A DNA stretch of 30,962 bases from an uncultured Flavobacteriales bacterium (GTDB taxonomy: Bacteria; Bacteroidota; Bacteroidia; Flavobacteriales_D; Parvicellaceae), in contig CAZJVX010000004.1 of the NCBI GenBank assembly GCA_964549345.1, forward strand, positions 1 through 30,962. Direction: 5' to 3'. Under the pieces are notes generated by a model. It was not told the origin of the DNA and ran no database searches. It worked only from the letters and a program-made list of their open reading frames with translations. The translations under genes were made by a program, and so were the position numbers. Within the stretch, counting starts at the first letter, position 1, and the number at the start of each line of letters is the position of its first letter. Of the stretch, positions 1 through 13,399 are shown piece after piece.

Positions 1-1416
1 TTCTTTTGACTCGTGATCTATTGTAATGCAATAGGGGGTTCCCACAGCATCTTGTCTTCTGTATCTTTTACCTATGGAATCTTTTTCATCTAATCCACAT
101 TCAAAATTCAATTTCAATTTATGGAATAGGTCAGATGCTATTTCGCTCAAACCATCTTTTTTTACTAAGGGGAGTATTGCTGCTTTAGTTGGCGCTATCA
201 CGGGTGAAATAGACAATAATGTTCTAGTACTGCCATCTTTCAATTTTTCTTCTTTTAGCCCATTAGATAACAAAGTTAAAAACATACGATCCAGTCCAAT
301 AGAAGTCTCAATCACGTATGGGATGTAACTTTCGTTACTTTCTGGATCAAAATAGCGTTGTTTCTTTTTTGAATATTCTTCATGTTGTTTAAGGTCAAAA
401 TCAGTTCTTGAGTGAATGCCTTCCAATTCCTTAAAACCAAATGGAAATTTGAATTCAATGTCGCATGCAGCATCAGCGTAGTGAGCCAACTTAATATGAT
501 CATGAAACTGTAGGTTTTCCTTTTCAATTCCAAGAGATTGATGCCACGCCATACGTTCTTTTTTCCAATATTCATACCACTCCTTTTGGCTGCCAGGTTT
601 AATGAAAAATTGCATTTCCATTTGTTCAAATTCTCTCATTCTAAAAATGAATTGCCTAGCAATAATCTCATTCCTAAATGCTTTGCCAATTTGAGCTATT
701 CCAAAAGGAAGTCTTTTTCTACCCGTTTTTTGGACATTCAAATAGTTTACAAATATGCCTTGAGCAGTTTCTGGTCTAAGATAAATAGTAGATGATTCTT
801 GTGCTAATGAACCTAATTCGGTTCCAAACATCAAATTAAATTGCCTCACGTCTGTCCAGTTTTTTGATCCGCTTATTGGACAGGTAATGCCTAGTTCAAT
901 GATGAGGTTGTAAATATCATTAAGATTTTTACTGTTTAATGCAGCAGATATCTTATTATTAATTTCTTGAATCTGTTTATTTCTCCTTAAAATATTTGGA
1001 TTGGTACTTGTGAAGTTTTCTTCATTAAATGATTCGCCAAATCGTTTTCTAGCTTTTGAAATATCTTTTTCGTTTTTATCCTGAATCTTAGAAACATAGT
1101 CCTCTAGTAATACATCCGCACGATATCTTTTTTTAGAATCTTTATTATCTATCAAAGGGTCATTAAATGCATCTACATGTCCTGAAGCCTTCCAAGTGGT
1201 TGGATGCATGAAAATGGCTGCATCTAATCCTACTATATCTTTGTTCATTTGAACCATTGATTTCCACCAGTATTTTTTGATGTTATTTTTGAGCTCTACT
1301 CCATTTTGACCATAGTCATAGGTGGCGCTTAGTCCATCATAAATTTCACTACTAGGGAATACAAAACCAAATTCTTTGGCGTGACTTATGATTTTTTTAA
1401 ACTTATCTTCATTCAT
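1..1416 (-). CDS. glyQS: Glycine--tRNA ligase (homodimeric alpha2 type), 3' end truncated by the window edge; not in the supplied ORF track
   Basis: Manual translation from ATG at 1416: MNEDKFKKIISHAKEFGFVFPSSEIYDGLSATYDYGQNG. At the window edge it reads GKRYRRQDAVGTPYCITIDHESKE (anticodon-binding domain). The frame runs off position 1. Confidence 0.96.
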   Translation of the reverse strand, partial: MNEDKFKKIISHAKEFGFVFPSSEIYDGLSATYDYGQNGVELKNNIKKYWWKSMVQMNKDIVGLDAAIFMHPTTWKASGHVDAFNDPLIDNKDSKKRYRADVLLEDYVSKIQDKNEKDISKARKRFGESFNEENFTSTNPNILRRNKQIQEINNKISAALNSKNLNDIYNLIIELGITCPISGSKNWTDVRQFNLMFGTELGSLAQESSTIYLRPETAQGIFVNYLNVQKTGRKRLPFGIAQIGKAFRNEIIARQFIFRMREFEQMEMQFFIKPGSQKEWYEYWKKERMAWHQSLGIEKENLQFHDHIKLAHYADAACDIEFKFPFGFKELEGIHSRTDFDLKQHEEYSKKKQRYFDPESNESYIPYVIETSIGLDRMFLTLLSNGLKEEKLKDGSTRTLLSISPVIAPTKAAILPLVKKDGLSEIASDLFHKLKLNFECGLDEKDSIGKRYRRQDAVGTPYCITIDHESKE

Positions 1417-1440
1417 GTTTACACATTCAATAATTTCTGA

Positions 1441-1448
1441 CAAAAATA
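1441..1448 (-). promoter_or_regulatory. Candidate Bacteroidota sigma-A -7 element for glyQS (TATTTTTG on minus strand)
   Basis: Matches TAnnTTTG, 24 nt upstream of the glyQS ATG. No well-spaced -33 TTTG found. Confidence 0.4.
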
Positions 1449-1505
1449 AAACTTCAAATGAAAGAACTATATTTAACCAACTCAATTTCCATAGTTTAAT
1501 ACACA

Positions 1506-2087
1506 ATGATTGAAATAGACAATAAAATTATTTCAGACGACATACTTGAGGAGCAGTTTGTGTGTGATCTTAGCCAATGTAAGGGGGCATGTTGTGTTGA
1601 AGGCGATGCAGGAGCTCCTTTGGACAAAGAGGAAATTAAAATCTTGGAGGAAATTTACCCCGTTGTAAAGTCCGAAATGCGACAACAAGGAATTGATGCT
1701 GTTGAAAAAGAAGGGTTATATTATATAGACGATTTTGGCGAACCGGTTACAACGCTTGTTAATAATAAAGAATGTGCTTTTGTGGTGTTTGATAAAAATA
1801 ATATTGCAAAATGCGCAATTGAAATTTCAAGTAGAAAAAACAAGACTGATTTCATAAAACCAATTAGTTGCCATTTATACCCAATTCGGGTGAAAGAATA
1901 TGAAAGTTTTCAGGGAATTAATTTAAATAAATGGCACATTTGTGAACCTGCCTGTGAATGCGGTAAAGACTTAAAGATTCCAGTATTTAAATTTCTAAAA
2001 GAACCTATAATAAGAAAATGGGGAGTTGAATTTTTTAGCCAATTAAGCCAGGTCTTTGAACAATATTTCCAAAAAAAATTATTGTAA
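1506..2087 (+). CDS. DUF3109 family cysteine-rich protein
   Basis: 193 aa with FVCDLSQCKGACCVEGDAGAPL, KPISCHLYPIR and WHICEPACECG, the pattern I recognise for this Bacteroidota family. Confidence 0.85.
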   Translation: MIEIDNKIISDDILEEQFVCDLSQCKGACCVEGDAGAPLDKEEIKILEEIYPVVKSEMRQQGIDAVEKEGLYYIDDFGEPVTTLVNNKECAFVVFDKNNIAKCAIEISSRKNKTDFIKPISCHLYPIRVKEYESFQGINLNKWHICEPACECGKDLKIPVFKFLKEPIIRKWGVEFFSQLSQVFEQYFQKKLL

Positions 2088-2418
2088 TATTTTGTCTTGC
2101 AAAAATTCTACAAAAGCCAATCATTTTAATTTTTTTTATTGATTTATTTATCTGTTTAGTTTTAATGAAATTTGATATTCTATTTTTTAAATAAATATTT
2201 TATACAATTTTTACAATTAAATTTCTTTGAGAACAACATTAATCTTTAAGTCTTTTCCTAATTATTTAAATTAACTGTTGAAATATAATTCTAACAATTT
2301 TGGTTGAACAACTAGGATTATGTTAGTGTCTTTCCTATATAAAAAAAAAATTTAAAAAACACTTTTTTTTATTTCAATAATATTTCAACACGACATGTTA
2401 ATAAGAGTTTTCGTGTAG

Positions 2419-2451
2419 TTTGATTTTGCATGATTTTGGATATTAGATTTG
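2419..2451 (+). promoter_or_regulatory. Bacteroidota sigma-A promoter for the first RNR pair
   Basis: TTTG at 2419-2422, 21-nt spacer, TAGATTTG (TAnnTTTG) at 2444-2451, 45 nt upstream of ATG 2497. Confidence 0.6.
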
Positions 2452-2496
2452 TCAACATGAGATTTAATTAAATCCATTTTTTTCTAAAATTTTATT

Positions 2497-3771
2497 ATGA
2501 TTATAGATACTATTATAAAAAGAAATAATACAAAGAATACATATGTATCTGAGAAGATAACCAACGCGATATTAAAGGCAATGCTCTCTGTTAATAACGG
2601 TGAATTGGAAGATGCGCAGAGAATAACAAATAACGTTGAAAAAACACTATTGAGCAGAAAAAAAAGTATTTCTAACTACGTTCCAAATGTTGAAGAAATT
2701 CAAGATTTAGTAGAGCAAAAACTTATGCAAAGCGAATTTCTTGATGTCGCAAAATCATTCATAATTTATCGTAATCAACAAGCTCAAAGAAGGAAAAGAA
2801 ATATTTTCGAAAAAAGGTTAAACTTAAAGCCCTACGAATATCCAGAATTATATGAATATGTTTCTGCCATTAGACATTCTTATTGGATACATTCAGAATT
2901 CAATTTCACAAGTGATATACAAGATTTTAAAACGAGACTTAGTGAAACAGAGAGAAGTGCAATAAAAAATACAATGTTAGCAATTTCGCAAATTGAAGTT
3001 GCTGTAAAAAGTTTTTGGGGAGATATTTATCAAAGAATACCAAAACCAGAAGTTGGTTCTGTAGGCGCAACTTTTGGTGAAAGTGAAGTTCGTCATGCTG
3101 ATGCCTATTCTCATCTTTTAGAAATTTTGGGACTTAATAAAGAATTTAAAGTTCTTAAAAAGAAACCAATCATAATGAAGAGAGTTAGGTATTTAGAGTC
3201 AGCCTTAGCTGCATCCAAAAGTAATGATGACATGGAATATGCTGAGTCAGTATTATTATTTTCTCTGTTCATTGAGCATGTATCTCTATTTTCTCAGTTT
3301 CTTATTATAATGGCTTTCAACAAACATAAAAACATGCTCAAAGGAGTCTCTAATGTTGTTGAAGCTACATCTAAAGAAGAGCAAATACATGGTGATTTTG
3401 GGATTGATCTTATAAAAATTATTAAAGAAGAAAATCCCGATTGGTTTAATTTTGAATTTCAAGAAAAAATTCAAGATATGTGCCAAAAAGCATTTGAAGC
3501 AGAAAGCGGATTGATCGATTGGATTTTTGAAAGAGGAGAATTAGATTTTTTACCAAAGCATCATATAAACGAATTTATTAAAGATCGTTTTAACAGATCA
3601 TTAGAAAGTATCGGTGTAGAAAAGATTTTTGAAACGGACCAATCCATTTTGAATGAAACAGAATGGTTTAATGATGAAATTATTGGCACAAAACATGGTG
3701 ACTTTTTTGTAAAGCGGTCGATAAATTACAGTAAAAGAACACAAAGTATAACGGGGGATGATCTTTTTTAA
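2497..3771 (+). CDS. nrdB: Ribonucleotide reductase beta subunit, class Id-like (NrdBi), with N-terminal ATP-cone domain
   Basis: Residues ~1-100 are an ATP cone (IIKRNN...EKITNAILKAM...VEEIQDLVEQKLM...VAKSFIIYR). The ferritin-like core has QIEVAVK, ESEVRHADAY, FIEHVSLFSQF and KEEQIH; the tail is SINYSK...GDDLF. Confidence 0.93.
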   Translation: MIIDTIIKRNNTKNTYVSEKITNAILKAMLSVNNGELEDAQRITNNVEKTLLSRKKSISNYVPNVEEIQDLVEQKLMQSEFLDVAKSFIIYRNQQAQRRKRNIFEKRLNLKPYEYPELYEYVSAIRHSYWIHSEFNFTSDIQDFKTRLSETERSAIKNTMLAISQIEVAVKSFWGDIYQRIPKPEVGSVGATFGESEVRHADAYSHLLEILGLNKEFKVLKKKPIIMKRVRYLESALAASKSNDDMEYAESVLLFSLFIEHVSLFSQFLIIMAFNKHKNMLKGVSNVVEATSKEEQIHGDFGIDLIKIIKEENPDWFNFEFQEKIQDMCQKAFEAESGLIDWIFERGELDFLPKHHINEFIKDRFNRSLESIGVEKIFETDQSILNETEWFNDEIIGTKHGDFFVKRSINYSKRTQSITGDDLF

Positions 3772-3773
3772 AT

Positions 3774-5561
3774 ATGGAAAACAGTATAGAAAAACAAGAT
3801 AATTACATTAACGATGATACATCTGTTGTAAAAAACAAACTAGTTAATGCACGAAAAGTTAGTTTAATAAATCAACAATCTAATAAATCTTTTGCTTGGT
3901 TAACAGACTACAGTAGAGATTTCCTAGCATCAGGTTATCTCACACCTGGCGTATCAGCTGAAGAAAGAATTAAAGAAATTGCCGATAGAGCTGAGGAGAT
4001 TTTAGGTATAAACGGATATTCAGAAAAGTTTTATAATTACATGTCTCAAGGATTTTTCTCATTGGCTTCCCCTGTTTGGTCAAATTTTGGCAAGAAAAGA
4101 GGTCTCCCAATAAGCTGTTTTGGATCCAATATTTCAGACGATATGGGTAATATTTTATATACTCAATCGGAAGTGGGAATGATGTCTAAGTTAGGTGGCG
4201 GAACTTCTGGTTTTTTTGGGAACATTAGACATAGAGGCGCATCGGTCACTAATAATGGAGAGGCATCGGGGTCAGTTCACATCATGCAGTTATTCGAAAC
4301 CATGGTTGATGTTGTAAGCCAAGGCTCTGTTAGAAGAGGTCGTTTTTCTCCTTATTTACCGGTAGAACATAAAGATATTTTAGAGTTTTTAGAAATTGGT
4401 ACAGAGGGTAATCCAATTCAGGAACTCACCCATGGAGTTACCGTAACTGATGAGTGGATGAATAAAATGATTGCGGGTGATCCTGAAAAACGAAATATAT
4501 GGGCTAAAATTATACAAAGAAGAGGTGAAATCGGATACCCTTACATCTTTTTTAAAGATAAAGCAAACAAAGGTGCTGCAGATGTATATCAAGATAACAA
4601 CCTAAATATTAATGCCAGTAACTTATGTACTGAAATCATGCTGCCTACTAATGATAAATGGTCTTTTGTTTGTGTTCTTTCTTCTGTAAATCTTTTACAT
4701 TACGAAAAGTGGAAAGAAACTGATGCTGTTGAAACTATGGTTTATTTCCTTGATGCCGTAATAACGGAGTTTGTGCAAAAATTAGAAGCTTACAGAGACT
4801 CTAGCGATCTTGACGACAAACAAACATTTTTATTCATGGAAAGAGCTTACAATTTTGCAAAAGAAAATCGTGCATTGGGTCTAGGTGTATTAGGCTGGCA
4901 CTCACTGTTGCAATCTAAAATGCTTTCATTTAATAGTCAAGAAGCCTTTAATCTCAATAGCGAAATATTTAAATTAATAAAAGAAAAATCATATAAAGCA
5001 TCTGAACAGCTAGCTTCAAAATTTGGTGAACCAAAGATTTTGAAAGGATATGGAAGAAGAAATGCCACTCTAAATGCTATTGCTCCGACCACATCATCTG
5101 CCTTTATTTTGGGTCAAGTTTCACAGGGCATTGAACCGATATGGTCAAATATTTACGTCAAAGATATAGCTAAAATAAAGACGACAATCAAAAATCCATT
5201 TCTAGAAAGTCTATTAGATGAAAAAGGTATGAACAACCAAGAAACTTGGAGAAGTATTAGAGACAAAGACGGATCCGTTCAACATCTCAGCTTTCTTTCA
5301 GATCAAGAAAAAGATGTTTTTAAAACCTATGCTGAAATAGACCAATTAGATATTATCTATCAAGCCTCAAATCGACAAAGTTATATAGATCAAGGTCAAT
5401 CTGTAAACATTATAGTCCACCCAGAAATGCCTGTAAAAGAAATTAATAAAATTTATGTTACAGCATGGAAATTAGGTTTAAAGTCTCTTTATTATCAGCA
5501 CAGTATGAATGCTGCACAAAAGTTCAAACAGAAGAAAGATTGCGTTAGTTGTGAAGCTTAG
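3774..5561 (+). CDS. nrdA: Ribonucleotide reductase alpha subunit, class Id-like (NrdAi), no ATP cone
   Basis: 595 aa with LPISCF, ASNLCTE, FVCVLSS, AIAPTTSS, KSLYYQ and C-terminal CVSC. Starts 2 nt after the nrdB stop. Confidence 0.93.
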   Translation: MENSIEKQDNYINDDTSVVKNKLVNARKVSLINQQSNKSFAWLTDYSRDFLASGYLTPGVSAEERIKEIADRAEEILGINGYSEKFYNYMSQGFFSLASPVWSNFGKKRGLPISCFGSNISDDMGNILYTQSEVGMMSKLGGGTSGFFGNIRHRGASVTNNGEASGSVHIMQLFETMVDVVSQGSVRRGRFSPYLPVEHKDILEFLEIGTEGNPIQELTHGVTVTDEWMNKMIAGDPEKRNIWAKIIQRRGEIGYPYIFFKDKANKGAADVYQDNNLNINASNLCTEIMLPTNDKWSFVCVLSSVNLLHYEKWKETDAVETMVYFLDAVITEFVQKLEAYRDSSDLDDKQTFLFMERAYNFAKENRALGLGVLGWHSLLQSKMLSFNSQEAFNLNSEIFKLIKEKSYKASEQLASKFGEPKILKGYGRRNATLNAIAPTTSSAFILGQVSQGIEPIWSNIYVKDIAKIKTTIKNPFLESLLDEKGMNNQETWRSIRDKDGSVQHLSFLSDQEKDVFKTYAEIDQLDIIYQASNRQSYIDQGQSVNIIVHPEMPVKEINKIYVTAWKLGLKSLYYQHSMNAAQKFKQKKDCVSCEA

Positions 5562-5782
5562 TAAGCTTAAAAGTAGCCAATAAATATTTTGTTGAAAACT
5601 AATAAAAACACATTTTAAAATCACTTGTTAAAAGTGTAAAAAATTTAAATATTTGCTTCGCTGTTACGTTATTATAGGCGGGTATTCGATATATGTTTTT
5701 TTAAAAAGCGCCTTTTATTACACATTTTATTGCCTTAAAGAGCAACTTTACGTCACAGACGCAATAACAAAAATATACTTTT

Positions 5783-6832
5783 ATGCACAAGAAAATTTCA
5801 CTAGAAAAGGAAGTAGTTGGTCAACATGTCGATTTAAATAAGGATCTAGATAAAAACTTGCATGTAGAAGAACCGATTCTGAAAGAAAATCCAAATAGAT
5901 TTGTATTGTTTCCTATTCAGCATGCCGATATATGGAAAATGTATAAAAAGCAAGAGGCTAGCTTTTGGACAGCTGAAGAACTAGATCTTTCACCCGACTT
6001 AGTAGATTGGGATAATAGGCTCAATGATGATGAGCGTTATTTCATAAAGCATGTTTTAGCTTTTTTCGCTGCATCAGACGGTATTGTAAATGAAAACCTA
6101 GCAGAAAATTTTCTCAGTGAAGTACAATACACTGAAGCTAAATTTTTTTATGGATTTCAAATAATGATGGAAAATATTCATTCTGAAACATACTCGCTTT
6201 TGATTGACACCTATATAAAAGACACAAAAGAGAAAAATTATTTGTTCAATGCAATTGAGACTTTTGGTCCGGTTAAGAAAAAGGCAGAATGGGCATTAAA
6301 ATGGATTGAGAATGGGAATTTTGCACAAAGAATTATTGCATTCGCAGCTGTAGAAGGAATATTCTTCTCTGGTTCATTTTGTTCGATTTTCTGGCTGAAG
6401 AAAAGAGGCCTTATGCCAGGACTTACATTCTCAAATGAGTTGATTTCAAGAGATGAAGGTCTGCATTGTGATTTTGCTTGTATGCTATATAATAACCATG
6501 TGGTTAATAGACTTGAGAAATCTGAAGTAGAAGAAATTATAAAGGAAGCTGTTGAAATAGAAAAAGAATTTATCACTGAAGCTCTTCCAGTTAGATTAAT
6601 TGGAATGAATTCAAATCTAATGAGTCAATACATTGAGTTTGTTGCTGATCGACTCACTTCAGAACTAGGTAATAAAAAGATTTACAACGTATCTAATCCA
6701 TTTGACTTTATGGATATGATAAATTTACAAGGAAAAACTAATTTCTTTGAAAAAAGAGTAGGTGAGTACCAAAAAGCAGGGGTGCTCAATAACAATAACG
6801 ATACTAGCTTTAACCTTGATGCTGATTTTTAA
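5783..6832 (+). CDS. nrdB: Ribonucleotide reductase beta subunit, class Ia, eukaryote-like (NrdBe); start may be TTG at 5858
   Basis: [30 protein letters not shown] (Asp ligand), ENIHSETYS (radical Tyr), [26 protein letters not shown]. Family-like sequence begins near residue 26, where a TTG follows an A-rich context. Confidence 0.95.
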
Positions 6833-6851
6833 ATTTACTTAATCAAAAAAA

Positions 6852-9209
6852 ATGTATGTAGTTAAGAGAGACGGCAGAAGAGAATCTGTCAAATTTGATA
6901 AGATAACTGCCAGAATTAAAAAACTATGTTATGGCTTAAATCCGCTTGTAACACCAGAAAAAGTAGCGATGAAGGTTATTGAGGGATTATACGATGGTGT
7001 CACAACTAGTGAGTTAGATAACTTAGCTGCCGAAGTGGCAGCAACCAATACCATTACTCACCCTGATTATGCTTTACTAGCCTCAAGAATTGCAGTATCA
7101 AATCTACATAAAAACACAAAAAAATCATTTTCTGATACAGTTAAAGATCTGTATGAATATTCTGACCCTAAAACAAATGAAAAGGCTTCCTTAATTTCCG
7201 ATGAAGTTTATAGTTTAATCATGAAAAATTCGGAATTATTGGATTCAACTATAATTTATGATCGTGATTTCAGATATGACTTCTTTGGATTTAAGACGTT
7301 AGAAAGATCCTACTTATTGAAGTTAAATGGCCAAGTTGTTGAAAGGCCTCAGCAAATGCTGATGAGAGTAGCAATGGGTATCCATAAGGATGATATAGAT
7401 TCTGCTATAGAAACCTATAATTATATGAGCGAAGGTTGGTTTACACATGCAACACCAACATTATTTAATTCAGGTACCCCAAAACCCCAAATGTCATCTT
7501 GTTTTCTATTAACTACTAAAGAAGATAGCATTTCTGGAATTTACGATACGCTAAAACAGTGTGCACAAATTTCCCAATCTGCTGGCGGTATAGGTCTTTC
7601 AATACATGATATCAGAGCCACCGGTTCCTACATAAAAGGTACCAATGGAACATCTAATGGTATCGTACCCATGTTAAGAGTCTTTAATGATACTGCCCGA
7701 TATGTTGATCAGGGAGGAGGTAGAAGAAAAGGTTCTTTTGCCATATATATTGAACCGTGGCATGCTGATATTTTTGACTTCTTAGACCTTAAAAAGAACC
7801 ATGGTAAGGAAGAACAACGTGCAAGAGATCTTTTCTACTCCCTTTGGATTCCTGATCTATTTATGAAAAGAGTGGAAGAGAACGGAGACTGGACATTGAT
7901 GTGCCCTAACGAATGCCCGGGGTTATCTGATACATATGGGAAGAAATTTGAAAGATTATACAAGAAGTATGAATCAGAAGGTAGAGGAAGAAAGACCATA
8001 AAGGCGCAAGAGCTTTGGTTTAAAATTTTAGAAAGCCAGATTGAGACTGGCACACCATATATGTTATATAAAGACGCGGCTAACGAAAAGTCAAATCAAA
8101 AGAACTTGGGAACCATAAAGTCCTCAAATTTATGTACAGAAATAATTGAATATACAGCACCAGACGAAGTCGCAGTTTGTAATCTAGCTTCCATAGCATT
8201 ACCCAAATTTGTTGTTGATGGGAAGTTTGATCATGAAAAGTTATTCAATGTAACTTACAGGGTAACTAAAAATTTAGACAGGGTAATTGATGCCAATTAT
8301 TACCCAGTTCCAGAGGCTAGAAACTCAAATATGAGACATAGGCCAATTGGTATAGGAGTGCAAGGACTAGCTGATGCGTTCATTTTAATGCGACAACCAT
8401 TCGATTCACCTGAAGCAAAACAATTAAACAAAGAAATTTTTGAAACTATTTATTATGCTGCTGTTACTGCTTCAAAAGATATAGCTATCCAAAATGGTCC
8501 TTATGAAACTTGGAAAGGGTCCCCCATTTCAAAAGGTGTATTTCAGTTTGATATGTGGAAAGTAAAGCCGACAGACCGTTGGGAATGGGATTTACTGAGA
8601 GAAGAAGTGAAAAAGCATGGAGTAAGAAATTCCTTATTACTTGCACCAATGCCAACAGCCTCTACCGCACAAATTTTAGGTAATAATGAATGTTTTGAAC
8701 CTTACACCTCTAATATTTACACCAGAAGAGTTTTATCAGGCGAGTTCATTATTGTAAATAAGCACTTGTTAAGAGACTTAGTGAAGTTGGGTATTTGGAA
8801 CGACAGGCTTAAAAATAAATTAATGGCATCAAATGGTTCTATACAAAATATTGATGAAATCCCCGAAAACATCAAGGTATTATATAAAACTGCGTGGGAG
8901 ATTTCTCAGAAAGAAATATTAGACATGGCTGCTGATAGGGGCGCGTACATTGATCAATCCCAATCACTCAATATTTTTATGGAGAATGCTAACTTTGCAA
9001 AACTAACTTCCATGCATTTTTATGGATGGAAAGCCGGCTTGAAAACGGGGATGTATTACCTCAGAACAAAATCTGCCACTGATGCTATTAAGTTCACATT
9101 AGATAAAGAGGCGATGTCAGAGCCTGTCGCTAAAACAGAGGAGGAGAGAATGGCAGATATCGATTGTTCTTTGGATGATCCAGATAATTGTGTTTCTTGC
9201 GGCTCATAA
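6852..9209 (+). CDS. nrdA: Ribonucleotide reductase alpha subunit, class Ia, eukaryote-like (NrdAe), with N-terminal ATP cone
   Basis: [22 protein letters not shown] cone, [37 protein letters not shown] and C-terminal CVSC. At 785 aa there is no room for an intein. Confidence 0.97.
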
Positions 9210-9240
9210 TATTCCAAATTTGATTTTTATTTAGCTCAAA

Positions 9241-9265
9241 AAAAAGCCCACATTGTGGGCTTTTT
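9241..9265. terminator. Bidirectional intrinsic terminator between nrdA (+) and the SPFH gene (-)
   Basis: AAAAAGCCCAC-ATT-GTGGGCTTTTT perfect inverted repeat with A and T tracts on either side, between convergent genes. Confidence 0.9.
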
Positions 9266-9284
9266 GTTCATCATAGTCAGATTA

Positions 9285-10145
9285 TCATTTAATACCTTTA
9301 AAAACAGAGGTTCCAGCACCAAATACATTATTCTCTCCATAGGGAGACCCTTTTCCATCAGCGTATCCTTTCCATTTTACAAGTTCAATATAATTAGGAG
9401 ATCTTGTAAGCTGTTGTTGAACTAACCTAATTTCTTCAGCTCTACCTTCCGCTCTAAGAATAGCAGCATTTTTTTCACCTTCTGCTTTTTTGATCTCAGC
9501 ATTTGCTAGGTATTGTTGCTCCTCCTCTAATTCTTTAGCTTTTTGATTTCGCTGTTTTTGTGTTTCTTTTTCAGTAATGGCTATTTTTACATTTTCTGGC
9601 AGATTAACATCTGCAATTTCACAAAAGTTATAGGTAATAAAATTTTCGGGAAATTCTGCTTGAAACATATTGTCCATTTCCGTTTCTAACGCCTCTCTTT
9701 TTGTGGAGTAGATTTCTTCATAAGTGTATCTGCCTATTACATCCTTTATAACACCTCTAACTTTTGCATCAACGAATGAGTTTTCATATGCTTTTCCGTG
9801 TTTTAAATGTAAATTTGGTGTTTTACCCTGCATAGGATTGTAATTAATTGTCACATCTATTCCTATTTCCATTCCGTTTTTTTCCATCACTTTTGACTCG
9901 TAATTTCTACTTTGTTGTAATACATTGTACGTAATCATTTCGTTCCACGGCATAATAAAATAGGTTCCCTCAGAATAATTTTCACTTGTATCAATTCCAC
10001 CGGTGTAAGGTCTATAGACAAATCCCTCTTCTCCAGGGTCAATATCTGTCCATGACATGAAAAATATAATAATAAATATGGCTCCTATTCCACCAAATAA
10101 GGCAGTTTTTAAGATGTTTTTTGGTTCTATTTCGATTTCGCTCAT
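9285..10145 (-). CDS. SPFH / band 7 / prohibitin family membrane protein
   Basis: N-terminal TM helix, IDPGEEGFVY, YFIMPWNEMITY, coiled-coil AITEKETQKQRNQKAKE...AEIKKAEGEKNAAILRAEGRAE. Confidence 0.88.
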   Translation of the reverse strand: MSEIEIEPKNILKTALFGGIGAIFIIIFFMSWTDIDPGEEGFVYRPYTGGIDTSENYSEGTYFIMPWNEMITYNVLQQSRNYESKVMEKNGMEIGIDVTINYNPMQGKTPNLHLKHGKAYENSFVDAKVRGVIKDVIGRYTYEEIYSTKREALETEMDNMFQAEFPENFITYNFCEIADVNLPENVKIAITEKETQKQRNQKAKELEEEQQYLANAEIKKAEGEKNAAILRAEGRAEEIRLVQQQLTRSPNYIELVKWKGYADGKGSPYGENNVFGAGTSVFKGIK

Positions 10146-10160
10146 AATGGTATGTTATTT

Positions 10161-10346
10161 TTAATTGTTTTTAGGTTTAGATTTTATCGTTTTATATGCA
10201 TAGTATATGCTTAATACGTCTATCAGTAACGCAAGTAATTTTATAATTGGACCTGTTTTAATGATATACTTGAATGTCAAAATAAGCAGCAAAGCTACTA
10301 AAGCAATGCTCAAAATTACATTTAGGATATATTTATTGTTGTTCAT
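10161..10346 (-). CDS. Small hypothetical membrane protein, 61 aa, two predicted TM helices
   Basis: Co-oriented and tightly packed: 1 nt after the fumC stop and 15 nt before the SPFH start. Two hydrophobic stretches and a basic tail. Confidence 0.65.
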   Translation of the reverse strand: MNNNKYILNVILSIALVALLLILTFKYIIKTGPIIKLLALLIDVLSIYYAYKTIKSKPKNN

Positions 10347-10347
10347 G

Positions 10348-11733
10348 TTAAATCATTTTTTTTGGGTCGACCCAACTATCATAGTCCTCAGCTGTAACAT
10401 AACCCAAATTTATAGCTTCTTCTTTTAGTGTTGTTCCATTTTTATGAGCTGTATTTGCTATTTCTGCTGCCTTGTAATAACCAATTTTTGTATTTAGTGC
10501 TGTGACTAGCATCAAAGAGTTATTTAATAATCTATTTATATTTTTAAAGTTAGGTTCTATTCCGGTTGCACAATGATTATTGAAGGAAACACATGCATCA
10601 CCGATAAGCTGGGCACTTTCAATCAAGTTTCTAGCAATCATGGGTTTAAATACATTCAATTCATAATGACCTTGCGTTCCTCCGACTGAGAGTGCAACAT
10701 CATTTCCCATTACTTGCGCACATACCATAGTCAGCGCTTCACATTGAGTTGGATTCACTTTTCCAGGCATGATAGAAGATCCAGGTTCATTTGCAGGAAT
10801 GATTATTTCTCCGATTCCTGATCTAGGACCAGATGCTAATAATCGTATATCATTTGCAATTTTATTTAATGATACTGCAATTTGTTTGAGTGCCCCATGT
10901 GTTTCAACCATGGCATCATGGGCAGCTAATGCCTCAAATTTATTTTCTGCACTTATAAAAGGTAATCCACTTATTGACGCAATTTGAGATGCTACTTCAT
11001 TACTGTAACCTTTTGGTGTATTTAGTCCTGTTCCTACAGCTGTTCCACCTAATGCCAATTCGCTTAAATGATGTAGTGTGTTTTTAAGCGCTTTAAGTCC
11101 ATGGTTTAATTGTGAGACATAGCCAGAAAATTCCTGACCAATTGTTAAAGGAGTAGCGTCCATAAGGTGGGTTCGACCAATCTTTACCACATCCATAAAT
11201 TTCTTCGATTTTTCAGAAAGTGTATCTCTTAATACCTCAATTCCAGGAATCGTATTCTCTATGATAATTTTGTAACTCGCAATATGCATGGCTGTAGGAA
11301 AAGTATCATTTGAGGATTGAGACTTATTTACATCGTCATTGGCCTGTAGTGCTTTTGGTCCTGAATCTAAATTTCCACCACTTAAAACGTGTGCTCTATT
11401 TGCAATTACCTCATTTACATTCATATTACTTTGAGTTCCAGAACCAGTTTGCCAAACTACTAACGGGAATTGATCGTCTAATTTCCCCTTGAGGATTTCA
11501 TCACATACTTGAGAAATGAGTTTCATCTTTTTTTCTTCCAATACACCAAGCTTTGAATTGGTGATAGCTGCTGCTTTTTTTAATACTGCAAAGGCATGTA
11601 TAATTTCAATAGGCATTGATCCTGAAGGTCCGATTTTGAAATTATTTCTAGAACGTTCCGTTTGAGCTCCCCAATATTTATCTGAAGGCACCTTAATATT
11701 ACCAATGGTATCTTTTTCAATTCTGTAACTCAT
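10348..11733 (-). CDS. fumC: Class II fumarate hydratase
   Basis: [28 protein letters not shown] and signature [16 protein letters not shown]; 461 aa. Confidence 0.98.
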
Positions 11734-11766
11734 TTCTAAATTTTATTACTAATTTCGTTTAAAATT

Positions 11767-11774
11767 CAAATTTA
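11767..11774 (-). promoter_or_regulatory. Candidate -7 element for the fumC operon (TAAATTTG on minus strand)
   Basis: Exact TAnnTTTG match 33 nt upstream of the fumC ATG; -33 element not evident. Confidence 0.5.
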
Positions 11775-11780
11775 GTATAT

Positions 11781-11936
11781 ATGTCTTTAGGGGTAGCTAT
11801 TTTCTTAATTTTCTTTGGTATGGCTTTTTGGGTACTTTTATTCCTGTTTAGCTTTATTGGAGCTTGGGTGAATTGGGGTTTAATCGATATTACTAAGGCT
11901 CAATTAGCTAAAAGAGGTCTAATAAAAGACGTCTAG
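11781..11936 (+). CDS. Small hypothetical membrane protein, 51 aa (below ORF-track cutoff)
   Basis: Manual translation: MSLGVAIFLIFFGMAFWVLLFLFSFIGAWVNWGLIDITKAQLAKRGLIKDV*. It fills the fumC-arsC gap, and its TAG overlaps the arsC TAG in a shared CTAG (11933-11936). Confidence 0.65.
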   Translation: MSLGVAIFLIFFGMAFWVLLFLFSFIGAWVNWGLIDITKAQLAKRGLIKDV

Positions 11937-12274
11937 CCCATAATAGACATAAAATTTTCAGCTGGTCTTCCAATAGTGGCTTTATTACCGAGCACAAGTA
12001 TTGGCCTCTCTATCAGTTTTGGATGTTCTATCATTTTTATAATTAGCTGATCATCGGTTAGCTTTTTTCCCTTAATTTCAGTCTTGTAAATCGTCTCGCT
12101 TTTTCTCATTAGTTCATCAGGTCTCATATCAAGCTTTTCAAGAATGGATCTGAGTTCTTGTTGAGTTAGTCCTTCTTTAAGGTAATCTATTATTTCGGGT
12201 TGAATATTTTTTTCGTTTAAAAAGGTTAATCCTTCTCTTGATTTTCTGCATCTTGGGTTGTGATAATATATCAT
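11933..12274 (-). CDS. arsC: ArsC/Spx/MgsR family protein (glutaredoxin-type arsenate reductase-like)
   Basis: YYHNPRCRKSREGL, IIDYLK, HPKLIERPI, IGRP motifs; 113 aa. No other ars genes nearby, so arsenate activity is unproven. Confidence 0.82.
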   Translation of the reverse strand: MIYYHNPRCRKSREGLTFLNEKNIQPEIIDYLKEGLTQQELRSILEKLDMRPDELMRKSETIYKTEIKGKKLTDDQLIIKMIEHPKLIERPILVLGNKATIGRPAENFMSIMG

Positions 12275-12276
12275 TA

Positions 12277-13366
12277 TTAAACTGATTTTCCGTATGTCAT
12301 TAGAAATGAATTTAAAAAAGGTTGTAGATCTCCATCAAGTACCTTAAATGGATCATTACTTTGAAAATTAGTTCTGTGATCCTTTACTCTTCTATCGTCT
12401 AGCACATAGCTTCTTATTTGTGACCCCCACTCAATTTTCATTTTTCCTGCTTCAATTTCATCTTGTTTTTCTCTTCTCTTTCTCAATTCAACTTCATAAA
12501 GTTGTGATTTCAAGAGTTGCATGGCTTTTTCTCGGTTACCTAACTGAGACCTCGACTCTGTATTTTCTATAACAATTCCGCTAGGAGCATGCTTTAGACG
12601 AACACCGGTTTCTACTTTATTGACATTTTGCCCACCGGCACCACCGCTTCTGAATGTATCCCAACTGATATCGGCAGGATTGATTTCTATTTCAATAGTA
12701 TCATCAACACTTGGATACACATAAACAGATGAGAATGAAGTCATTCTTTTGCCCTGAGCGTTAAAAGGGCTAACCCTAACTAATCTGTGCACACCATTTT
12801 CACCTTTTAAATATCCGAATGCAAAATCTCCAGAAATTTCTAATGTGACCGTTTTGATACCTGCAACATCTCCGTCTTGACATTGAAGCTCTTTAATTTT
12901 AAATCCATTTTTCTCTCCCCACATTAAATACATCCTCAGTAGCATAGAACTCCAATCACAGCTCTCAGTACCACCAGCACCTGCGGTTATTTGAAGTACA
13001 GCATCGAGGTGATCTTCTTCAGAAGATAGCATGTTTTTAAGCTCAAGCTCTTCTAATTTTTCCATCATGGATTCAAATTGCTCATTAACTTCTTCTTCAG
13101 ATACTTCACCTTCTTTGAAAAAATCAAATAGAACTTCTGTATCTTCCAGAGACATTTTTAAATCATCATAGGTATTAACCCAAAATTTCTTTTGTTTAAT
13201 TCCTTTTAGTACTAATTCTGCTTTCTTTGGATCGTTCCAAAATTCTGGATCTTGAGTGATTAATTCTTCCTCTTTAATGGATTCTCTTTTTTCATCAACG
13301 TCAAAGATACCCCCTTAACGCTTCCAGGCGATCATGTGTATTTTTAATTTGCTCTTGAGAAATCAT
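12277..13366 (-). CDS. prfB: Peptide chain release factor 2, translated via programmed +1 frameshift (about 362 aa)
   Basis: ATG 13366 gives MISQEQIKNTHDRLEALRGYL then TGA. The +1 frame from 13302 reads DVDEKRESIKEEELITQDPEFWNDPKKAE and joins the tracked ORF, which has GGTES, SPF (RF2 specificity) and GGQ motifs. Confidence 0.96.
13300..13315 (-). promoter_or_regulatory. prfB +1 frameshift cassette (internal SD AGGGGG, then CTT TGA C)
   Basis: Minus strand reads AGG GGG TAT CTT TGA C, the canonical RF2 autoregulatory site. Confidence 0.95.
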
Positions 13367-13399
13367 AGATAAAAATTAAGTACAATTTTACTAATTATT

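Follow-up and report, generated by a model that had tools for sequence, protein, structure and literature searches.

Tandem class Id and class Ia ribonucleotide reductase operons at a DUF3109-anchored locus of an uncultured Flavobacteriales bacterium

Organization of the ribonucleotide reductase locus

The DNA analyzed here, referred to as the window, is a stretch of 30,962 nucleotides from an uncultured Flavobacteriales bacterium (contig CAZJVX010000004.1, assembly GCA_964549345.1). The window carries two different class I ribonucleotide reductases (RNRs) in direct tandem, a nrdB-nrdA pair of class Id followed by a nrdB-nrdA pair of class Ia. De novo synthesis of DNA precursors depends solely on RNR, whose need for a metal ties DNA replication to the supply of trace metals. 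The four genes are intact open reading frames (ORFs) on the forward strand, separated by short gaps: nrdBi (2497–3771, 424 amino acids) and nrdAi (3774–5561, 595 amino acids) encode the radical-generating and catalytic subunits of the class Id enzyme, and nrdBe (5783–6832, 349 amino acids) and nrdAe (6852–9209, 785 amino acids) encode those of a eukaryote-like class Ia enzyme. By Pfam and NCBIfam matches, the four products are in turn a small, a large, a small and a large chain, with an ATP-cone on the first and the last.

A preliminary description of the window had reported a nrdB-nrdA-nrdB-nrdA order on one strand, intact catalytic motifs in both alpha subunits, and two pairs of different subclasses rather than recent paralogs. 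All of this is borne out. The four forward-strand ORFs lie exactly where that description placed them, the NLCTE, YY and CVSC motifs can be read in the translations of both alphas, and the Pfam, NCBIfam and PDB matches agree with the signature residues on the two subclasses. The catalytic SNLCTE is present in NrdAi and NrdAe alike, the tyrosine dyad lies in SLYYQHS in the former and in GMYYLRT in NrdAe, and the C-terminal cysteine pair lies in DCVSCEA and, in NrdAe, in NCVSCGS. The window as a whole belongs to the ordinary core chromosome of a bacterium with low GC content. A foreign composition of the cassettes is ruled out, as the GC content at third codon positions (GC3) and the codon usage of both lie within the range seen in the core genes around them.

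Identity of the class Id pair

The first pair is of the Leeuwenhoekiella blandensis type. NrdBi aligns without gaps over residues 3–424 with L. blandensis NrdB (5OLK, E 9e-205), with two other class Id betas, 8DQ3 and 6CWO, as the next PDB matches, and bears an ATP-cone at its N-terminus (PF03477, E 1.8e-19, residues 5–96) that aligns with the cone of 5OLK and does not appear in the preliminary description. NrdAi scores 739.5 bits against TIGR02510 (NrdE-prime; cut-off 602), and its top PDB matches are the class Id alphas 6DQX (E 1e-217) and 6DQW (E 2e-176). Pfam gave no PF03477 match on its 595 residues, as for the short, cone-less alpha of class Id.

Class Id beta subunits have Glu rather than Asp as the first metal ligand, paired with a second-sphere Tyr (PMC8463856), as well as a conserved Lys near the metals, a Trp at the third position after that Lys, and a Thr whose hydrogen bond keeps the Tyr away from the metals (PMC6754362). 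In NrdBi, where residue numbers equal those of L. blandensis minus 3, the Glu and Tyr are E167 (IEVAVKSFW) and Y204 (EVRHADAY), and the Lys, Trp and Thr are K171, W174 and T291. The set of two histidine and four carboxylate ligands is complete (E167, E197, H200, E260, E295 and H298), and the C-terminal tail reads ITGDDLF. No flavodoxin-like gene that could encode the activase NrdI was found among the window ORFs scanned with Pfam. By the biochemistry of the family, NrdBi would need no NrdI to assemble a Mn2(IV,III) cofactor, which would form from Mn(II) with superoxide or H2O2. The dATP/ATP on-off switch of this pair would sit on the beta subunit, through the N-terminal ATP-cone, which acts as a dATP-sensing off-switch in L. 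blandensis NrdB (PMC5794259).

Pair 1 thus resembles the L. blandensis enzyme (5OLK, 6SF4) in domain order, metal ligands, the Lys/Trp/Tyr/Thr signature, the short cone-less alpha and the lack of NrdI nearby in the window. The two differ in the company they keep: L. blandensis has its class Id enzyme alongside a class II RNR (PMC5794259), whereas here a class Ia operon follows immediately downstream. According to the literature, every species with an ATP-cone NrdB also holds another RNR.

Identity of the class Ia pair

The second pair matches mouse R2 and human R1 above any bacterial structure. NrdBe matches mouse R2 (1H0N) with an E-value of 1e-153, compared with about 1e-12 for Escherichia coli R2, and NrdAe matches human R1 (3HNC) with 1260 bits over residues 1–785, compared with 233 bits for E. 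coli R1. The Pfam domains of NrdAe are an ATP-cone (PF03477, residues 1–87), Ribonuc_red_lgN and Ribonuc_red_lgC. Alignment of NrdBe with mouse R2 demonstrated a complete set of diiron ligands, with Asp as the first (D99, E130, H133, E191, E225 and H228). Its radical tyrosine is Y137, and its tail, FNLDADF, is one residue off the mouse FTLDADF. On the strength of these match scores, pair 2 is assigned to the eukaryote-derived NrdAe/NrdBe class Ia enzymes of marine Bacteroidetes, a group interpreted as a transfer from eukaryotes to Bacteroidetes (Lundin et al., 2010, PMC3019208). The preliminary description did not mention this eukaryotic derivation. NrdBe would use a diferric-tyrosyl radical cofactor made with O2, and in this pair the ATP-cone is on the alpha subunit. 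We regard the identities of both enzymes as secure.

The nrdAi-nrdBe junction and the state of the genes

The window is a metagenome contig, and an assembly or binning chimera could have joined two organisms in the spacer at 5562–5782, where the preliminary description had pointed to a possible break. Three contigs (L177, L179 and L180) have one of their ends close to this spacer, at most a few hundred bases away. These three nevertheless match the window sequence there, and at least 11 contigs, found by exact-protein look-ups and coming from various samples and different assemblers (SPAdes, MEGAHIT and Tara scaffolds), cross the junction collinearly at 98.6–99.4% identity to the window. A second lineage, described below as lineage X, has the same nrdAi-nrdBe junction, and GC3 and codon usage are uniform across it. 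The junction is genuine, being spanned in at least 11 independent assemblies, and a chimera is extremely improbable. Contigs bearing the tandem come mostly from marine metagenome assemblies, many of them from Tara Oceans.

None of the four genes has a stop or an indel in the population contigs examined, in which synonymous variants far outnumber nonsynonymous ones. Ratios of nonsynonymous to synonymous substitution rates (dN/dS) against lineage X are 0.016 for nrdBi, 0.040 for nrdAi and 0.029 for nrdBe. The synonymous divergence (dS) of nrdAe from lineage X is saturated, and against a relative without the Id pair (an Id-less relative) its dN/dS is 0.022. All four genes are under strong purifying selection. 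The earlier view that neither pair is a decaying duplicate therefore stands, on complete ligand and catalytic residues, low dN/dS and the uninterrupted frames of the population contigs.

A divergent haplotype block

Contigs L337–L346 encode a band-7 protein identical to that of the window and have the layout glycyl-tRNA synthetase (GlyRS)-DUF3109-[431 bp]-nrdBe-nrdAe-band7, with no Id pair. Most 250-nucleotide windows of the flanks (1–2000, and from 9500 onward) are 92–97% identical between these Id-less relatives and the window. Overall, flank identity is 93–96%, with 96% from 9500 onward. Between the flanks, sliding identity against L337, L341 and L342 delimits a divergent RNR haplotype block of about 7.2 kb (2070–9250, forward strand), which comprises a new spacer, the Id operon and the Ia operon; there is no homology over 2070–5566, and identity over 5567–9250 is 74–90%. 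The left edge of homology is at the DUF3109 gene (1506–2087, forward strand; PF11307, E 1.9e-74), which encodes a Cys-rich protein of the Rv0495c family, and the right anchor of the locus is an SPFH/band-7 gene (9285–10145, reverse strand; PF01145). Values of dS between the window and an Id-less relative are 0.19 for fumC and 0.24 for band7, compared with 0.98 for nrdAe and 2.2 for nrdBe.

The whole RNR block, from the end of DUF3109 to the end of nrdAe, is a divergent allele. A simple insertion of the 3.3 kb Id cassette into an orthologous locus is rejected by the identity profile and dS: the Ia genes have diverged too, and the exchanged unit is therefore the whole block rather than the Id cassette alone. 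The block would derive from a more distant donor by homologous recombination in the flanking genes, the simplest mechanism. The left spacer (2070–2496) has no similarity to any fetched locus that could point to its donor, and no convincing direct repeats of the kind left by mobile elements were found around the Id cassette in the window. One Id-less contig (L346) departs from the common layout, with a nrdAe call of only 630 amino acids and no ATP-cone (10937–12829) and a nrdBe region that shares only 84% identity with the window; a gap in the scaffold may be the cause, or the contig may carry another RNR haplotype.

The band-7 protein common to both haplotypes occurs in 458 blocks of the protein collection, and NrdAi and NrdBe of the window in 32–35. 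By this rough comparison the tandem haplotype is probably a minority. We conclude that the tandem is not fixed in the group but is one among several alternatives that can occupy a conserved DUF3109-anchored RNR locus, a point absent from the preliminary description.

Recurrence and age of the tandem

Lineage X (L347–L349) has the tandem at this locus too, and in the order of the window; NrdAi there is 93–94% identical to that of the window, and the flanks are only about 80% identical. A third lineage, L002, has the tandem in reversed order. Between the window and lineage X, dS is 0.84–0.93 for the Id genes, at least 1.8 for the Ia genes and 2.1–2.3 for the flanks, and within the window population synonymous diversity of the Id genes is 4–10 times below that of nrdAe, band-7, fumC or DUF3109, figures to be read with small samples, contigs chosen by protein identity and dS near saturation in mind. 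Low dS and low diversity together are suggestive of an Id cassette younger or more mobile than its surroundings. The trough in synonymous diversity over the Id genes (2497–5561), with 0.4–0.5 differences per 100 codons against 1.9–5 in the neighbouring genes (1506–2087 and 6852–11733; contigs L161–L180), is consistent with a recent sweep or introgression. When the protein collection is clustered at 90% identity, NrdBi and NrdAi are each the sole sequence of their cluster.

The Id pair also occurs in other settings. It has yet another context in L001, the closest species-level relative. In L350–L353, whose NrdAi is 89% identical to that of the window, it stands alone in glycosyltransferase-rich variable regions, beside a reverse-transcriptase-domain gene, a PD-(D/E)XK nuclease, a DNA ligase and a methyltransferase, and these surroundings have the look of a variable genomic island. 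In L002, direct repeats of about 130 bp (9618–9750 and 13202–13317), about 80% identical to each other, lie on either side of the Id cassette. One belongs to an intact 141-amino-acid ORF, of which it forms the 3' part, and the other is a frameshifted fragment of that ORF; the duplication looks like an insertion scar that arose independently of the arrangement in the window. A recent phage origin of the cassette was considered and rejected: the best isolate phage is 56% identical and the best IMG/VR sequence 64%, compared with 74–89% in cellular genomes, and viral homologues at no more than 64% identity leave no recent phage link.

Rarity of the arrangement and the DUF3109 slot

The arrangement was surveyed in lists of the best 80 loci per query, one representative per species, 236 loci in all, many of them from incomplete metagenome-assembled genomes (MAGs). 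Among 80 species loci fetched through NrdBi, a class Ia pair lies within 10 kb in one, the Flavobacteriales MAG L002, whose order (DUF3109-Ia-orf-Id) is the reverse of that in the window. None of the 156 species loci fetched through NrdBe has a class Id pair within 10 kb. The supposition that an adjacent Id and Ia arrangement had not been described holds up, since no such description was found in the literature searched and the arrangement is rare in these 236 species-level loci. It is a real, rare and new arrangement of two known systems, each enzyme alone being of a known kind.

The DUF3109 gene is the conserved upstream, same-strand neighbour of class Ia, Id or Id plus Ia operons in Flavobacteriales (L181–L256, L005, L008, L010, L022, L034, L040, L042, L056, L077, L080 and L081). 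The Id pair directly follows a DUF3109 gene on the same strand in 10 of 72 loci, and the Ia pair does so in 9 of 71. Among 76 Flavobacteriaceae loci, 62 have the gene ahead of the Ia pair inside the 10 kb fetched, 28 of them at a distance of 900 bp or less. Pair 2 is thus like the NrdAe/NrdBe operons of marine Bacteroidetes in having DUF3109, the usual neighbour in Flavobacteriaceae, upstream. In the 156 species loci, however, that operon stands alone, whereas here the Id operon lies between DUF3109 and the class Ia promoter. The gene order GlyRS, DUF3109, Ia pair, band-7, fumC and ArsC is the same in a Crocinitomicaceae MAG (L081) as in the window, minus the Id pair. DUF3109 has no relative of solved structure by sequence; PF11307 now takes its name from Mycobacterium tuberculosis Rv0495c, a protein that a preprint connects with redox homeostasis. 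The protein may be tied functionally to RNR, through supply of reductant or cofactor maturation, or may be a mere syntenic anchor.

Downstream of nrdAe, on the other strand, are the band-7/SPFH gene, fumarase C, an ArsC-family gene and prfB. The last of these has a programmed +1 frameshift site (CTT TGA C at 13300–13306, reverse strand, within 13156–13370), which is preceded by an AGGGGG Shine-Dalgarno-like stretch; the main ORF (12277–13155) therefore starts at position 61 of the PCRF domain.

Further observations were made in the surveyed loci. In two of Lewinellaceae/Saprospiraceae (L114, 11141–14710, and L126, 11129–14662) the NrdAe match is split by about 1.1–1.2 kb, possibly by an intein or other insertion. 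A Saprospiraceae locus (L112) has two divergently oriented NrdBe copies (2358–3314 and 10001–10957), 80% identical to the query.

Promoters and a shared upstream element

A palindromic, RNR-specific element (CAACA-CGACA-TGTTAATAA) conserved across species lies ahead of nrdBi at 2386–2404 (forward strand); no other site in the window matches YAACA-N5-TGTTR exactly. The element is followed by a putative Bacteroidetes-type -7 box of the Id operon, TAGATTTG (2444–2451, forward strand), which matches TAnnTTTG and aligns with a conserved TGTAAATTTGG block upstream of nrdBi in relatives. The 221 bp spacer between the pairs (5562–5782, forward strand) contains the class Ia promoter, with two motif matches to the RNR element, TGTTGAAAA (5590–5598) and TTGTTAAAAG (5625–5634), and a putative -7 box, AATATTTG (5648–5655), before nrdBe that is conserved across species, all on the forward strand. 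The TGTTGAAAACT and TTTTGT blocks of this spacer are kept in L081, L002, L082 and L083. Positions from about 5567 to 5782 align with the promoter-proximal 210 bp or so of the DUF3109-nrdBe spacer of the Id-less relatives, and the Ia promoter has therefore been kept intact.

In its tight form, TGTTRAWAA, the element occurs in 94 of 124 spacers upstream of RNR genes, ahead of both Id and Ia operons, compared with 32 of 600 other spacers of the same loci (L001–L160), and it lies about 50–60 nucleotides upstream of each -7 box. The loose form, TGTT[AG]A[ATC]A[AT], precedes nrdBi in 76 of 79 species loci, mostly 82–111 nucleotides ahead of the ATG, and nrdBe in 42 of 79. The motif often extends to the full palindrome TTATYAACA-N5-TGTTRATAA, as in L001, L002 and L028.

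Known operators were compared with this element. NrdR sites consist of two 16-bp boxes (C4, A6, A8, T9, T11, G13) 15–16 bp apart in a promoter, and their core CNANATNTNG has no match in 2088–2496 or 5562–5782. AACA-N5-TGTT is not an NrdR box: its dyads are spaced differently, it has no partner box, and the core pattern is missing. The LexA-like SOS operators of Bacteroidetes, GGA-N5-TCC or CTAA-N5-TTAG, share the dyad-N5-dyad layout but have different dyads, and a paper on the Bacteroidetes SOS regulon makes no mention of nrd genes. A scan of positions 1–12000 against Rfam (E no greater than 1) returned one chance-level match (9241–9279) and no riboswitch or known RNA, and a sigma-70 scan, which is uninformative for Bacteroidetes promoters, found fewer promoter-like sites than in shuffled sequences. 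As no convincing terminator was recognized between nrdAi and nrdBe, transcription of the Id operon may read through into the Ia operon. We infer two transcription units, and the presence of one RNR-specific element at both promoters would point to at least one common regulatory input.

Functional interpretation

A Mn-dependent RNR backs up the Fe-dependent enzyme under iron limitation and oxidative stress in E. coli and Salmonella. By analogy with the class Ia and Ib enzymes of E. coli, a metal or oxidant switch between the two pairs, as the preliminary description proposed, is plausible. The supply of deoxynucleotides could then run either on Mn and reduced oxygen species or on Fe and O2, which would help in iron-poor surface sea water and would parallel E. 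coli nrdAB and nrdHIEF. The likeness is that of two aerobic class I RNRs in one genome, of Fe and Mn types, although here the metals are expected from the subclass. Several features set the present locus apart. The E. coli operons nrdAB and nrdHIEF are unlinked, whereas the Id and Ia operons are adjacent. The enterobacterial nrdHIEF system needs NrdI and forms a tyrosyl radical, whereas a metal-centred oxidant is expected of the class Id enzyme, which has no NrdI here. NrdR and Fur are named as regulators of the E. coli RNR operons (PMC4898720), with NrdR boxes on both operons and Fur also acting on nrdHIEF, whereas no NrdR box was found in the window's two promoter regions. With moderate confidence, we favor reading the locus as two autonomous class I RNRs, each with its own promoter, that give redundancy of Mn and Fe cofactors, in a haplotype that spreads by homologous recombination. 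Near-identical genomes with the Ia pair only argue that the Id pair is conditionally useful, not essential.

Several points weigh against this reading. The metal-sparing role would rest on the enterobacterial analogy, and no Fur-like or other metal-specific signal was noticed in the spacers, where no formal Fur-box scan was made as such scans are unspecific in DNA so AT-rich. The window taken alone shows no enrichment of the short promoter and operator patterns, which draw their support from comparison across species. The sole recognizable cis-element is common to both operons, which would argue for control that is at least partly common. No assembly except L002 is in both the Id and the Ia list, and in the surveyed genomes the two enzymes look mostly like alternatives, not partners; one might normally suffice. 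The surveys support "rare" and not "mutually exclusive", because the lists keep the best 80 loci per query and include many incomplete MAGs.

That both pairs meet at one slot also fits gene displacement in situ (xenologous replacement), in which the tandem would be a transient intermediate, its pairs without distinct roles and one of them due to be lost. As in such displacement, a single DUF3109-anchored slot holds non-orthologous class I RNRs across lineages, filled after DUF3109 by Id alone, Ia alone or both in different loci, and the sharp identity breaks at its edges point to recombination in the flanks. Close relatives of the window carry Ia only, L002 is the one surveyed assembly that holds both subclasses, and in neighbour-joining trees Id-only and Ia-only loci interleave with those bearing the tandem. 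Displacement differs from what is seen here, however, in that both alternatives have been kept under purifying selection in at least two lineages. The same-order tandem is shared by two lineages whose Id genes stand at a dS of 0.84–0.93 and dN/dS of 0.016–0.04 (about 0.03 for nrdBe), a third lineage holds both pairs in the other order, and about 20 population contigs are free of inactivating changes. The relaxed selection on one pair that a transient state predicts is not seen, and such long maintenance of both argues against a mere transitional state, which we consider unlikely.

The pairs might instead be specialized by a factor other than metal, such as allostery, growth phase, demand after DNA damage, or resistance to an inhibitor or to phage interference. 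Their ATP-cones are on different subunits, beta in pair 1 and alpha in pair 2, and according to the literature cones on beta and on alpha give different inhibited oligomers. Both promoters share one RNR-specific element, with no metal-regulator site recognized, and genes for ATP-cone NrdBi are common in marine viral contigs, which puts RNR in play in phage-host interactions. Those viral homologues are nonetheless at most 64% identical to the window's genes and show no recent phage link, no positive evidence was found for any of the roles listed, and the best-documented difference between the subclasses is the cofactor (PMC8463856, PMC6754362). Specialization of this kind thus seems quite improbable beside cofactor redundancy of two autonomous enzymes.

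A broader proposal, which goes beyond cofactor redundancy and is offered tentatively as a possibility we doubt more than we credit, is that the locus, from DUF3109 to the core genes downstream, is a cassette-exchange site where marine Flavobacteriales swap or stack Fe and Mn class I RNRs by homologous recombination in the flanks. Id plus Ia would then be an adaptive, iron-sparing polymorphism against Ia only within nearly one species, and both operons would be under an RNR-specific regulator that binds TTATYAACA-N5-TGTTRATAA and replaces NrdR in Flavobacteriales.

Implications

Joint carriage of Fe- and Mn-dependent RNRs is a known bacterial strategy, worked out mainly for classes Ia and Ib in enterobacteria. 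If cofactor redundancy holds, the locus would widen this strategy to include class Id, a subclass defined only recently, and marine Flavobacteriales that are abundant and uncultured. Near-identical genomes with Id plus Ia or with Ia alone at one site would amount to a natural experiment, in which the ocean distribution of each haplotype could reveal what a Mn-dependent RNR is worth ecologically. The shared upstream element would likewise offer a handle on the control of RNR in an order where no NrdR boxes were found.

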